23,022 nucleotides of DNA from IMG/VR virus record IMGVR_UViG_2698536506_000009; one strand, written 5' to 3'. Positions 1,659-6,450 of the stretch are shown in pieces (position 1 is the stretch's first letter; every line of letters begins with the position of its first letter). The DNA is from a virus (Duplodnaviria; Heunggongvirae; Uroviricota; Caudoviricetes). Below the pieces are notes generated by a model, which was not told where the DNA came from, searched no databases, and was given only the letters and a program-made list of their open reading frames with translations. The position numbers and the translations under genes were made by a program.

Positions 1659-3680
1659 TTAAGAATCAGCCTGACTCGGGATCAGTTTTTGCCAGATAAC
1701 TGAAACGTATTTTGCCTGGTAACGGGCGTCATCAAGTGCATTATGGCGCTCACCTTCGAATGGAATAGCCGTTCTGGCATCGAAGTCTATGGCTTTCCCC
1801 AGCTCAACGATTGTGCGTACATCGCGATCGTTGTAGTAACGCCACGGGCAGGGGATCCCCTGCCGTTCGTATGAACGGCGCAAAATCGTGTTGTCGAAGT
1901 TGGCTCCATTTCCCCAAACCTGAACAAAAAATTCACCGGAGTTTTCGTCGATAAATTCTCGCAATTGTAACAGTGCATCATCTAACGGGATTTCATCGGT
2001 CATAATGGCAGATTGCGCTTCGCGTGATTGCTTAAGCCACCATTTAATGGTGTCCCGATCAATGACTCCGCCAGCAGTTTCCAGATCGATAGTCTTACTA
2101 AATTCCGGTCCCATATCTCCGGTTTGCGGATCGAAAAATATTGCACCTATTGAGATGATCGGGGCATCAGGATTTTTTCCCATGGTTTCAAGGTCGATCA
2201 TTAGATGGTCACACGTCCTGCTGGTGGATGTGATTTCGTGATGACCGTTCACCTTAATTGGGTGATCTGCCGTCTCGCCAGTTTCATTATCGCTATTGTG
2301 ATGCTGATTGCCGCCAGTGTTCTCCTTGTGTGGATGTTCAGCGCCTTCCATTTCCTCCGGATCATCTTCCTGAACTTCAACCTGATACTCTTCATCGAAT
2401 GTTTCTTGGTATGTTGCGTCGCCCATCACCGCGCCACAATCAGGGCAGTTGCCGCCGCCGGTCTGACCGCAGGCGGTGCAGACTTTTTCCACTTCCTGTT
2501 GCGCTACTGGTTCAGGCTGTTTCGTTTCTGGCTCGTTTTGTAACGCATTTGGACTGTTTTGTTCCGCTTTTTGGTAGTTCCGTTCCGATTCATGCTGGTT
2601 CTGGTTCACAGAATCGCGGGTCTGGAGCCCCTTAACCCATTTCGGATCATTCGGGTCACTAATCCCTTCAACAAATTCACCACGTGATGCAGCAAGCAAC
2701 TTATCGGCGTCAGGCTGGCTGATATTGGCTGCCTGCATAATTTTGTTTACTTCGTCAGCGGTAACTTTTATCGGCTCTGGTTGTTCTGAATCTTCAGCGG
2801 TATCTACATTTTGCGGTAAGCCCGTGTATGTGCCATTTTTTCGGGCAAAATATTCTTCTTTTGTGATTTCAGTGGCGCCAGCAGCCAGTGCCTTATCCAG
2901 ACCAGAGAGTTTGTTTGCGCGACCGTATTTTTCTCCGTCCTTATCTGCGAAGAGGAAATAGAACGGCCCCTCACGCTCTACAGATGGTTCAGCTTCCGGC
3001 GCGGTTTCATTTTTTGGGATATCAGATACCTCAGTTTCCACTGCATCAGTTTGTGTTTCTGATGACTGGAGAACATCAACAGTGCCCAGGTCTGTTTCTT
3101 CATTCTCAAACACGCCCTTTGTCGTCAGGTATTCGCAGATATATTTGTTCAGTGCTACGGGATCTTTGTGAATGTCGATCGGACGCTCACGGACAAGGCC
3201 AAAAATAGTTTGGCGGTCGTAGCGAAGGGCATCAGGCTGTTTGCGCATTGATGCCGAGATACGCTTCCAGTCTTCGCGGTCGTTGTCGATAACTTCTTTT
3301 TTTGCCCAGCGATGGATGCTGCCGTCAATGTTTCCGGCATCCACATCACTAGGCCAGAGAGCGTAGGCCAGTTCGTCATCCAGTGTTTTCCATGTCTGCT
3401 TGTATTCGCGATGAATGGCAGCAATGACCGGGCTGATTTTTCCTGTTGAATTTTCAGTGTACTGTTGATTGGCTCTGGCGCGGGCGAGATCAACAACAGA
3501 CGTGTATTTTCCGGTTTCCTTGCGTTCACCTTCGCGACGTTTTTTCCAGATGCGCATCTCTGCCTGAATTTCGGGCCATTTAGCACCAGGAATACATTTA
3601 TGCTTAACCCACCCAATGGCGTGCAACTTAAGCTCCGGATATTCGAAGTGGACGATGACGCAACACCTGAGGAAATTCAT
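1659..3680 (-). CDS. Multidomain putative 3'-5' exonuclease (DnaQ-like DEDDh C-terminal domain)
   Basis: 673-aa ORF. C-terminus has MIDLETMG, VWGNGANFDNTIL and HNALDDARYQA, consistent with DEDDh exonuclease motifs. The middle is an acidic low-complexity linker with a CxxC-x8-CxxC pair (CTACGQTGGGNCPDCG). The annotated start codon overlaps a plus-strand ATG (CATG at 3678-3681), so the true start may lie downstream, e.g. the Met at 3557. Confidence 0.7.
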   Translation of the reverse strand: MNFLRCCVIVHFEYPELKLHAIGWVKHKCIPGAKWPEIQAEMRIWKKRREGERKETGKYTSVVDLARARANQQYTENSTGKISPVIAAIHREYKQTWKTLDDELAYALWPSDVDAGNIDGSIHRWAKKEVIDNDREDWKRISASMRKQPDALRYDRQTIFGLVRERPIDIHKDPVALNKYICEYLTTKGVFENEETDLGTVDVLQSSETQTDAVETEVSDIPKNETAPEAEPSVEREGPFYFLFADKDGEKYGRANKLSGLDKALAAGATEITKEEYFARKNGTYTGLPQNVDTAEDSEQPEPIKVTADEVNKIMQAANISQPDADKLLAASRGEFVEGISDPNDPKWVKGLQTRDSVNQNQHESERNYQKAEQNSPNALQNEPETKQPEPVAQQEVEKVCTACGQTGGGNCPDCGAVMGDATYQETFDEEYQVEVQEDDPEEMEGAEHPHKENTGGNQHHNSDNETGETADHPIKVNGHHEITSTSRTCDHLMIDLETMGKNPDAPIISIGAIFFDPQTGDMGPEFSKTIDLETAGGVIDRDTIKWWLKQSREAQSAIMTDEIPLDDALLQLREFIDENSGEFFVQVWGNGANFDNTILRRSYERQGIPCPWRYYNDRDVRTIVELGKAIDFDARTAIPFEGERHNALDDARYQAKYVSVIWQKLIPSQADS

Positions 3681-3741
3681 GACGGAGCATAAGAAATTTT
3701 CTTTAACTACTGCAATTACTCATACCACGAAATAAAAGACG

Positions 3742-3933
3742 ATGAGGAAGAACAAAGTGGCTGATTTTTGTTCAGCTAAATATAACATCAGTTTTGAAGA
3801 GCGGGATGAACTATTAATGGACTATGGTGAGTTACGCGGTGGAAGTGCTGCTGATGTCGAATCCTAGCGTGATGACTATGAAGCGGGAAAAACTCCGGTC
3901 GAAGCATATTGTGATGAGTGGGGCGATGAATGA
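3742..3933 (+). pseudogene. Short ORF interrupted by an in-frame TAG (41 codons, TAG at 3865-3867, 21 more codons)
   Basis: Purine-rich sense-like codon usage on the plus strand. The reading frame continues in phase across the TAG to a TGA that overlaps the next ORF start (ATGA). No convincing SD. Function unknown. Confidence 0.3.
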
Positions 3934-4217
3934 GCGAGATTAATTATCAGGAAGGGCATGAAACGGCGGGGCAAGCAAAACCAGTGGCATGGCGATATCG
4001 CTACGTGAAAAAAGGCGTTACGGACTTTCAGGGGAAGTAGTGGTCTGGTGACTGGAAATATGTACCGAAAAAAGAGGATTGTAACGACAGGCCGAACTAT
4101 CAAATTCAGGCCTTATTCACTGCCTCACCAGTCCCAGTTACATCAGAAGAACTGGTTAAAGCTGTGCACTTTTATGAACAACTAAAACGCGAAAATCCAC
4201 CAACATCCGGCAACTAG
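3930..4217 (+). pseudogene. Short ORF interrupted by an in-frame TAG (36 codons, TAG at 4038-4040, 58 more codons)
   Basis: Translation MSEINYQEGHETAGQAKPVAWRYRYVKKGVTDFQGK, stop, WSGDWKYVPKKEDCNDRPNYQIQALFTASPVPVTSEELVKAVHFYEQLKRENPPTSGN. Protein-like composition on both sides of the TAG; the antisense frame is compositionally implausible. Confidence 0.35.
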
Positions 4218-4471
4218 ATTAATGGATTAACTATGTCGGTTAAACGACCAGCCAACTGAAAAAGCGGAAACCTGATTACAGGTTGCCAGATAAGGCAATG
4301 AGCTACCTGGCGCGGAACGGACTGATAAGTATGGGGAATGTTTTACGATGAACCTTTAGACTAAAGAGTTTGTAACGCTATGTAAGTGATTTTTTCTGGT
4401 TTAGATATTTATATGTCCGGCCAAATTGAGGTGTGTTTAAATGTAATTGCACATTGATTGTAGGAGGAATA

Positions 4472-4651
4472 ATGAAAAACGCATTGCAGTTTTTGTTTGT
4501 TGCGTTCTGGTTGTTCGCATCATGTATGCCCATCATCTTCACAGCAAGGTATATGGAAAAAGTTGATGTTTTGATATTAATATTTGGATATATAAATGCC
4601 CTTTTTTTAGGGGTGTTCATGGCGGTCATGTGCATTGAATACTGGCGGTAA
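4472..4651 (+). CDS. Small hydrophobic protein, two predicted transmembrane helices (59 aa)
   Basis: AGGAGG at 4462-4467, 4 nt before the ATG. Sequence MKNALQFLFVAFWLFASCMPIIFTARYMEKVDVLILIFGYINALFLGVFMAVMCIEYWR has two hydrophobic segments separated by a short polar loop. Confidence 0.5.
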   Translation: MKNALQFLFVAFWLFASCMPIIFTARYMEKVDVLILIFGYINALFLGVFMAVMCIEYWR

Positions 4652-4899
4652 ATACAGCGAACTCCATTGGTTTAGTTGGATATTTACTGTGCTGGACAAA
4701 AACGGTTTGCGGGGAAATCTTAGTTAAGTAGAATGACTGCGGGTGCTTGAGGCTATCTGCCTCGGGCATGGACACCAACGGCAGATAGAGAAAAGCCCCA
4801 GTTAACATTACGCGTCCTGCAAGACGCTTAACATTAATCTGAGGCCAATTTCATGCTAGACACATGTAGGTTAGCCTCTTACGTGCCGAAAGGCACGGA

Positions 4900-6450
4900 G
4901 AAGCAGGCTATTGTTAACACCAAGCTGTAATGTCCCCTTTGAACCATTCTAAAATGTCCCCAGACAATTCTCTGGGGGATTTTTCATGATCAAAGAGACT
5001 GTTACGATGAGTCATAAGGAACTCCACCGACTTCAGATTATTCAGGAACAAGCTGCGGCACGCATTGGCATTTCTATTCGGCAGGTTAAACGTCTGGTGC
5101 AACGGTATAGAAATGAAGGGCCTTCTGGTCTGGTTTCCCACCGACGTGGAAAGCGTCCTAATAATTCCTTTTCTACTGAATTCAGAGCAACAGTAATTTC
5201 ACTCCTCAAAGGCCGTTACGCTGATTTTGGACCTACGTTTGCGTGCGAAAAATTGCGCGAGATACACGGTTTATCTTTATCCGTTGAAACTCTCAGAAAG
5301 TGGATGATAGAAGAGGGGTTATGGCGTGAACGCCGTCGTAAAATTGCCCGTATATATCAACGCCGCATGCGACGACCATCTTACGGTGAACTGATCCAGA
5401 TTGATGGCTCACCTCATGACTGGTTTGAAAATCGAGGCCCCAGATGTACACTGATCGTTTTCATTGATGATGCCACCAGTGCGTTGATGGCGTTGCGTTT
5501 TGTGCCTGCTGAAACAACCCGGGCTTACATGGAAACCCTCCGGGGTTACCTTAATGATCATGGCGTACCGCTCGCTCTCTACTCTGATAGACACAGTATA
5601 TTCAGGGTAAATAACCCAGAGCGGGAAGGTGAGCTGACCCAGTTCACTCGTGCGATAAAGACACTGGGCATCGAGCCAATCCATGCCAACAGCCCGCAGG
5701 CAAAAGGGCGGGTAGAGCGCGCCAATCAGACACTACAGGACAGGCTGGTCAAAGAAATGCGGCTTCAGAATATCAGTGATATTGAAACAGCAAATGCATG
5801 GTTGCCGACCTTTATTGAAGCCTATAACAACCGGTTCGCTACGTCGCCTCGTACTACTGATAATGCTCATCTTGATGTGCACCATTCTGAAGAGGAACTG
5901 GGTTATATCTTCAGCCTACAGGCGAAGCGCGTTCTGTCTAAAAATCTCACTTTCCAGTACAAAAGCAGTGCGTTTCAGGTACGCAGTGAGGGCCGGGGAT
6001 ATCGACTTAGGCATTCGGTTGTTACTGTATGCGAGAACTTTGACGGTGAAATTAACGTTCTGTATGACGGGAAAGCGCTGGGCTGGGAAAAGTATGTTGA
6101 TGGCCCGGAGCCTATACCACTGGATGATGAAAAGAGTGTCCATGAACGAGTGGATAATGCCCGTATTGATTTACGCTCAAAATACTATGTTAAACCTAAA
6201 GCTGACCATCCCTGGCTTACGCGCCGAACGCAAAGTCATCAGCAAGTTAAGCCCCCGAAGTTACCTAAAAAGAAGCCTGATCCCGATAAAAAAGATTGAA
6301 ACCAAGATCGATTCGGTTGAGTGCATATCCATTCATAGGGTAGATTCTTAAGTCGCGTTTCTGGTGTTCATTTTCGGGTGGTTTGTTACTTGTTTTACCG
6401 GGGATATGCCAGAAACGCGCTGAGTCAGTCTGGGCGGTGCGCGTAATGAG
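4900..6450 (+). mobile_element. Insertion sequence carrying the rve transposase (boundaries approximate)
   Basis: Single transposase ORF flanked by non-coding sequence. I could not identify terminal inverted repeats or a target duplication by eye; only an 8-bp AGGCTATT / AATAGCCT pair (about 4903 and 6462), which could be chance. Confidence 0.3.
4986..6299 (+). CDS. DDE transposase with retroviral-integrase-like (rve) core and N-terminal HTH
   Basis: 437-aa ORF with an N-terminal HTH-like region (RIGISIRQVKRLVQRY), candidate catalytic D in IQIDGS, D in LYSDRHSIF, and the rve hallmark NSPQAKGRVERANQTLQ. Family (IS481-like or ISNCY-like) not resolved. Confidence 0.85.
   Translation: MIKETVTMSHKELHRLQIIQEQAAARIGISIRQVKRLVQRYRNEGPSGLVSHRRGKRPNNSFSTEFRATVISLLKGRYADFGPTFACEKLREIHGLSLSVETLRKWMIEEGLWRERRRKIARIYQRRMRRPSYGELIQIDGSPHDWFENRGPRCTLIVFIDDATSALMALRFVPAETTRAYMETLRGYLNDHGVPLALYSDRHSIFRVNNPEREGELTQFTRAIKTLGIEPIHANSPQAKGRVERANQTLQDRLVKEMRLQNISDIETANAWLPTFIEAYNNRFATSPRTTDNAHLDVHHSEEELGYIFSLQAKRVLSKNLTFQYKSSAFQVRSEGRGYRLRHSVVTVCENFDGEINVLYDGKALGWEKYVDGPEPIPLDDEKSVHERVDNARIDLRSKYYVKPKADHPWLTRRTQSHQQVKPPKLPKKKPDPDKKD

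Follow-up and report, generated by a model that had tools for sequence, protein, structure and literature searches.

Two amber-interrupted frames in a Qin-type cryptic prophage of Escherichia coli are very probably pseudogenes of a decayed phage accessory module

Two short plus-strand frames that adjoin each other in a 23,022-nucleotide stretch of DNA (hereafter the window, meaning the whole stretch analyzed) each contain one in-frame TAG codon, which raises the question of whether they are inactivated genes or genes that are expressed only when amber codons are suppressed. Both possibilities had been put forward in an earlier note, which described a first frame (ORF1) at 3742-3933 with a TAG at 3865-3867 and a second frame (ORF2) at 3930-4217 with a TAG at 4038-4040, and both frames with their TAG codons are present in the sequence. 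To examine the further claim that coding sequence lies on either side of each TAG, we compared the two reconstructed frames with phage genomes by tblastn, and found homologues that span the TAG positions and in which the two genes are adjacent (best E-values of 5e-34 for ORF1 and 2e-58 for ORF2, with diverged intact copies at 1e-27 and 1e-47, respectively). Intact phage and prophage homologues cover both TAG positions, with TGG (ORF1) and, in the closest alleles, CAG (ORF2) at these codons. The ATGA overlap proposed to join the two frames, at 3930-3933, is also the junction in intact gene pairs. The alignments revised two of the proposed limits and brought in a third gene upstream, and the features of the locus are as follows (labels beginning with L are compared loci or contigs, and those beginning with P are compared proteins).

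3641-3764, plus strand: remnant of a DUF7167 gene (PF23768, PHROG 1997; 60 aa when intact), 5'-truncated at the ~3640-3641 junction
3690-3692, plus strand: ochre codon (TAA) in the DUF7167 remnant; Lys (AAA) in intact 60-aa copies
3757-3933, plus strand: ORF1, very probable pseudogene of 58 codons, PHROG 519; starts with GTG and overlaps the DUF7167 gene by 8 bp
3857-3885, plus strand: substitution patch of 29 bp with 7 substitutions, the TAG included, in the window versus L015
3865-3867, plus strand: amber codon 1, TGG (Trp37) to TAG, a G>A transition; next base C
3930-4351, plus strand: ORF2, very probable pseudogene, PHROG 660, starting at the ATGA overlap, with the ancestral stop TGA at 4349-4351
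4008-4013, plus strand: A6 run in ORF2; A5, A6, A7 and A8 occur among the TAG-allele strains (L007-L012 and phage 640R1 versus the window)
4038-4040, plus strand: amber codon 2, CAG to TAG, a C>T transition; next base T
4215-4217, plus strand: amber codon 3, the second CAG>TAG change in ORF2; CAG in L020, L021, P0002, P0004 and P0006
4245-4252, plus strand: site of a 4-bp deletion, TGGC or TGGT missing between 4248 and 4249 relative to L020 and L021

The intact module consists of the DUF7167 gene (60 aa), the PHROG 519 gene (58 aa, overlapping the former by 8 bp), and the PHROG 660 gene (119 to 171 aa), in this order. It is carried by Escherichia phage vB_EcoS-689R5, Actinobacillus phage vB_Apl-pPE4, and contigs L020 and L021, and it resembles the window in gene order, in the 8-bp and ATGA overlaps, in its amino acid sequences (83-88% identity), and in its location between replication or Ea22-type genes on one side and hok-rem-ydfU on the other. 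The difference is that the three genes are uninterrupted there, whereas the copies in the window contain four nonsense codons and the 4-bp deletion. The statement in the earlier note that neither frame could be assigned to a family was not upheld, as ORF1 belongs to PHROG 519 and ORF2 to PHROG 660, both of which are listed as 'unknown function'. Homologues of ORF1 and ORF2 had no match in Pfam or NCBIfam, and PADLOC gave no match to either, so that no known toxin, toxin-antitoxin or defense model was found for them. Against PDB sequence profiles, ORF1 had no match, and ORF2 matched nothing but designed helical repeats, marginally (E = 0.0065 and weaker). AlphaFold2 modeled an ORF1 homologue as a putative three-helix bundle with low confidence (pLDDT 63.5), and the confidence for an ORF2 homologue was also low (pLDDT 56.9). 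The core of ORF2 (PVAWRYRYVKKG...ENPP) is shared with Ead/Ea22-like proteins (PF13935), where it lies C-terminal to the Ead_Ea22 N-terminus (P0074, P0075). Unlike these, the ORF2-type proteins lack the Ead_Ea22 N-domain and have no PF13935 match; judging from the sequences, they are proteins with a module in common with the Ead/Ea22 family and not members of it.

For ORF1, the proposed end at 3933 was retained while the proposed start, the ATG at 3742, was not. This ATG sits within the DUF7167 gene, and the intact alleles used for comparison have AAG or GAG at 3742-3744. The ancestral start is at 3757, where the window and intact L015-L017, which have the same N-terminal haplotype, use GTG and the other intact copies use ATG. 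Phages pPE4, 640R1 and 689R5 carry intact homologues of 58 aa, as do E. coli chromosomes and metagenome contigs, and the closest of these homologues matches the PHROG 519 profile with E = 4.5e-23. More distant relatives were found by tblastn in large virulent phages that infect Escherichia, Salmonella and Klebsiella. The ORF1-type proteins are small and acidic and have an invariant C-terminal motif, DYEAGKTP..AYCDEWG. Trp37, the residue replaced by the amber codon, is invariant in the alignment (15 of 15 intact homologues), and the 21 codons downstream of the TAG specify the same residues as in the intact copies. Besides the TAG, the lesion load of ORF1 in the window comprises two replacements at conserved Ala positions, and the evidence for loss of function would be weaker for ORF1 alone than for ORF2. 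The window differs from L015 at 3857, 3858, 3862, 3864, 3866, 3876 and 3885, so that the intact codons GCT GAA GCA TGG read GTC GAA TCC TAG in the window, with the changes at 3876 and 3885 in addition. Because these seven differences are packed in 29 bp and the rest of L015 is 99.9% identical, they suggest a short recombination patch, although clustered mutation could be the source as well. RefSeq records with the identical locus carry no annotation of ORF1.

ORF2 extends beyond the end first proposed for it. The TAG at 4215-4217, taken as the terminator, is a premature stop, and the intact alleles run on past 4215 with the sequence '...SGNQVSELT.WVKRL.SQL.KA.PDCKLPEKAMDYLKRN.LIS.EDVLR'. We set the boundaries of ORF2 by codon-level alignment to intact L020 and L021; they match the span of a PGAP pseudogene in identical loci, labeled 'hypothetical protein; frameshifted; internal stop'. 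In the closest intact architecture (P0002/L020), the protein has 141 aa, and the closest intact homologue matches the PHROG 660 profile with E = 2.9e-45. At the first amber position, 4038, the codon is CAG in 689R5, L020 and P0026 and varies among the other intact homologues (Pro, Arg, Met, Leu or Trp), while the TAG is common to all of the sampled Qin-type alleles (L007-L012, 640R1, L014, L015 and L018). The 4-bp deletion after 4248 shifts the frame of the C-terminal module, and the resulting span, 422 nt, is not divisible by 3. In sister alleles, the length variants of the A run upstream of the TAG add frameshifts, and strains with the ORF2 TAG have other lesions too: 57 bp are deleted in one case, and in L010 ORF1 has lost 8 bp.

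The upstream DUF7167 remnant differs from intact copies by 3 to 5 amino acids over 40 shared codons. An intact homologue is a clear Pfam match (E = 7.9e-15; 55.1 bits against a gathering cutoff of 24.4), and PGAP, in identical loci, gives the gene the label 'DUF7167 family protein, internal stop'. The Rfam scan showed no RNA family overlapping 3640-4351, the promoter scan of 3300-5100 showed no sigma-70-like site, and a literature search returned nothing specific to the DUF7167/ORF1/ORF2 locus.

The window is E. coli DNA of a Qin-like cryptic prophage, running from the rspB-side integrase through ydfJ, with a gene content (rspB-side integrase, relBE, hokD, ydfU, ydfT, cspB, cspF, nohA, pinQ, ydfJ) that is the Qin set. 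The region of the two frames, from ~3640 rightwards, matches many E. coli chromosomes at 100% identity, those of ATCC 8739 and E. coli W among them. The relevant features of the setting are listed below.

1659-3680, minus strand: exonuclease gene, 5'-truncated; an ORF of 673 aa versus about 823-825 aa in other strains
~3640-3641: strain-specific deletion junction, located by blastn mapping, at which the exonuclease gene (minus strand) is joined to the middle of the DUF7167 gene
4741-4912: second hok/sok locus, with an Rfam sok antitoxin match of 104 bits
4868-4912: mok/hok leader fragment of 15 residues, RLASYVPKGTEKQAI, part of the second hok/sok locus
4986-6299: ISNCY-family transposase, a single uninterrupted 437-aa ORF in the window
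11758-12150 and 14660-15045: two cspA thermoregulator leaders (Rfam), upstream of the cspB-like and cspI-like genes, expected for Qin
19482-19680: IS009 (Rfam, 220.9 bits), expected for Qin

At the 3640-3641 junction, the window lacks ~5.5 kb of the fuller Qin-type locus L001. The missing segment holds ydfD, dicB, ydfC, ydfB, ydfA, dicA, dicC and a ydaT-family gene, followed by an unnamed gene, a DUF977 gene and a methyltransferase gene; the unnamed gene bears the label 'DNA replication protein O' in phage PhiR42_1, and the methyltransferase gene is frameshifted in sister loci. As a result of the fusion across the junction, the first ~13 codons of the 673-aa exonuclease ORF are antisense DUF7167 sequence. 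MG1655 has a deletion of its own, a different one, and lacks window positions 3642-6114. K-12 ydfX, a candidate for the locus, was ruled out, since MG1655 lacks 3642-6114 and its ydfX adjoins dicC. L001 itself is NZ_CP026085.1, a 4.83-Mb record labeled DH5alpha, in which the full ydaT-to-ISNCY segment absent from MG1655 is present. Its Qin region is therefore not K-12-like, and the DH5alpha label may be wrong.

On the other side of the two frames, the second hok/sok locus has lost the hok coding part where the ISNCY element starts (~4912-4986), and the intact relatives 640R1, 689R5, pPE4 and L021 have a hok gene at the equivalent position. The ISNCY transposase is elsewhere called by PGAP as a C-terminally incomplete pseudogene followed by 'ydfW'; the 49 aa of ydfW (6150-6299) are in frame with the transposase ORF and form its C-terminal end, and contig L015 has a 27-bp insertion at ~5041 that extends this ORF to 446 aa. 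Between ORF2 and the hok/sok locus, the GC content is low and two ORFs overlap, one of 72 aa that is hydrophobic (4433-4651, plus strand) and one of 85 aa (4378-4635, minus strand), the latter with an 83-aa version in phage records that is named 'hypothetical protein' or 'hornerin'.

We surveyed the population with 61-bp probes around each TAG, in which the TAG was altered to the sense codon, against 5426 complete E. coli genomes. The ORF1 TAG haplotype was found in 506 genomes and the ORF2 TAG haplotype in 1158 (1144 at ≥ 80% coverage). The sense-codon haplotypes (TGG for ORF1, CAG for ORF2) had no full-length exact match in the 5426 genomes, and hence every copy found keeps the mismatch. The ORF1 TAG haplotype is strikingly uniform over the 506 genomes, which fits recent clonal or recombinational spread and is no proof of neutrality. 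The ORF2 TAG allele also adjoins intact ORF1 and DUF7167 genes, in L009-L012 and phage 640R1, except that ORF1 of L010 has the 8-bp deletion. Roughly 2400 E. coli genomes have a match to the module, and the intact pair itself is common: 140 E. coli genomes are ≥ 95% identical to the pair of 689R5, and many protein clusters have hundreds of members. Among intact ORF1 copies, dN/dS was 0 to 0.14 in pairs with synonymous differences (≤ 0.09 in all but one), and it was 0.22 for intact ORF2 copies, while the TAG-bearing ORF2 of the window differs from that of L009 by one synonymous and six nonsynonymous changes; all of these contrasts involve very few substitutions. They suggest that the intact copies are under purifying selection, and the direction seen for the TAG allele fits relaxed constraint after inactivation.

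Taken together, we consider it very probable that the DUF7167, PHROG 519 and PHROG 660 genes have decayed to pseudogenes through ordinary point mutations and small deletions in a Qin-type cryptic prophage. The inactivation half of the earlier note is borne out to this extent, as nonsense codons disrupt both frames and intact versions of the genes exist elsewhere, with TGG and CAG at the positions of the stops. In the ancestral state, the three genes would have been consecutive, translationally coupled accessory genes in the early region of a lambdoid phage, between the replication genes and hok/rem/ydfU. The ~660 bp of the module carry four nonsense changes (AAA>TAA at 3690, TGG>TAG at 3865, CAG>TAG at 4038 and CAG>TAG at 4215), a frameshifting loss of 4 bp after 4248, and a truncated end, the last produced by a larger deletion that removed all of the immunity and replication region and cut into the DUF7167 gene from its 5' side. 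ORF2 was probably the first to be lost, since about twice as many genomes carry its TAG allele as carry that of ORF1 and the allele is found beside intact neighbors; the stops in ORF1 and the DUF7167 gene would have followed later in one sub-lineage. The predominance of amber codons may be explained by C>T and G>A transitions at CAG and TGG, presumably the commonest routes to a stop. The stops would be read by RF1, and the products, if any, would be truncated peptides of 36 aa each, without function. The defective surroundings (the truncated exonuclease, the missing immunity region and the cut hok/sok locus) support decay. PGAP-flagged Qin-type pseudogenes have the identical sequence and lesions, with ORF2 and the DUF7167 gene already recorded as pseudogenes in RefSeq; the window departs from them in that its DUF7167 remnant is further cut by the strain-specific deletion.

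A nonsense codon in each of three neighboring genes, the disruption of ORF2 in every sampled Qin-type chromosomal locus, and the separate damage to ORF1 in L010 would also be expected if the module were harmful to the lysogen, for example through a host-takeover or toxic early function, and its knock-out were positively selected in prophage domestication. However, E. coli prophages and phages hold many intact copies, as the 140 genomes with a 689R5-like pair illustrate, the ORF2 TAG goes back to one event shared by its carriers and is not recurrent, flanking genes decay too (the frameshifted methyltransferase gene, the cut hok, the deleted immunity region), and the module matched no toxin, toxin-antitoxin or defense model. 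Since intact copies are common, the flanking genes have also decayed and there is no toxin- or defense-model match, neutral decay is sufficient and selection against the module is not needed; we regard such selection as unlikely. We would likewise give only a slim chance to the proposal that the module is an early phage function costly to the lysogen and that the row of nonsense codons is silencing that was selected, or, in a weaker variant, that the ORF1 amber permits trace readthrough at a low dose. Errors of sequencing or assembly come to mind as well, since such errors account for many of the pseudogenes with internal stops in public assemblies (Cooley and Wright 2024, PMC11017572), but identical TAGs recur in 506 (ORF1) and ~1150 (ORF2) independently sequenced complete genomes, and the same stops are present in the deposited phage genome PhiR42_1 and in the unrelated metagenome contigs L014, L015 and L018. 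By this recurrence over independent assemblies, the error explanation is refuted, and its probability is practically nil.

The other half of the earlier note, expression only with amber suppression, would require that ORF1 and ORF2 are functional and conditionally made, with readthrough of the ambers due either to a suppressor tRNA, of host or phage origin, or to leaky termination. ORF1 with its single lesion and its 21 conserved downstream codons is compatible with readthrough, and two of the three ambers are at Gln positions of the intact copies, Gln being the residue that a supE-type suppressor inserts; at Trp37, however, which is invariant, an inserted Gln is not the native residue. ORF2 has a second amber and the 4-bp deletion, with A-run frameshifts in its sister alleles, and the adjoining DUF7167 gene has an ochre codon and lacks a start. 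ARAGORN found no tRNA or tmRNA gene in the 23-kb window, and TAG is the normal terminator of the rzpQ-like and tfaQ-like genes (the other 26 checked window genes end in TAA or TGA). The TAGs are also limited to one haplotype family, while all diverged homologues carry sense codons. Because suppression is unable to mend the 4-bp deletion, the ochre codon and the truncation, this reading is unsupported, and we consider it very improbable. An element recoded so that TAG specifies Gln, as in some stop-recoded phages, seemed to be favored by proteins P0003, P0022, P0123 and P0124, which show Gln at the TAG positions. We rejected these as revertants, since the DNA of the short contigs behind them (L014, L018) has TAG and the listed proteins are not obtained under the bacterial code. 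The phantom full-length proteins are artefacts of a gene caller choosing a TAG = Gln code on short contigs, and it seems that short contigs rich in amber pseudogenes trigger this false choice of code. With E. coli as the host, TAG terminating the rzpQ-like and tfaQ-like genes and no suppressor tRNA in the window, the likelihood of recoding is negligible. Thus the window resembles suppressor-dependent amber genes and TAG = Gln phages in that phage genes contain in-frame TAGs, of which two stand at Gln positions, and differs from them in lacking a suppressor tRNA, in having TAG terminators nearby and an extra ochre codon and frameshift, and in that its TAGs are confined to one recent haplotype. 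Pyrrolysine and selenocysteine were rejected on general knowledge, given the E. coli host, the TAG codons, and Trp or Gln in the homologues.

The decay of the module is in large part already annotated, as two of its three genes are flagged as pseudogenes in RefSeq, and its biological weight is small: accessory genes that a cryptic prophage can dispense with have decayed step by step, in textbook manner. The phantom 'intact' proteins in large collections could mislead users as evidence of recoding or of intact alleles. For annotation, the gain is an unlisted ORF1 pseudogene and the extent of ORF2 to 4351, in Qin-type prophages that are present in about one fifth of complete E. coli genomes.
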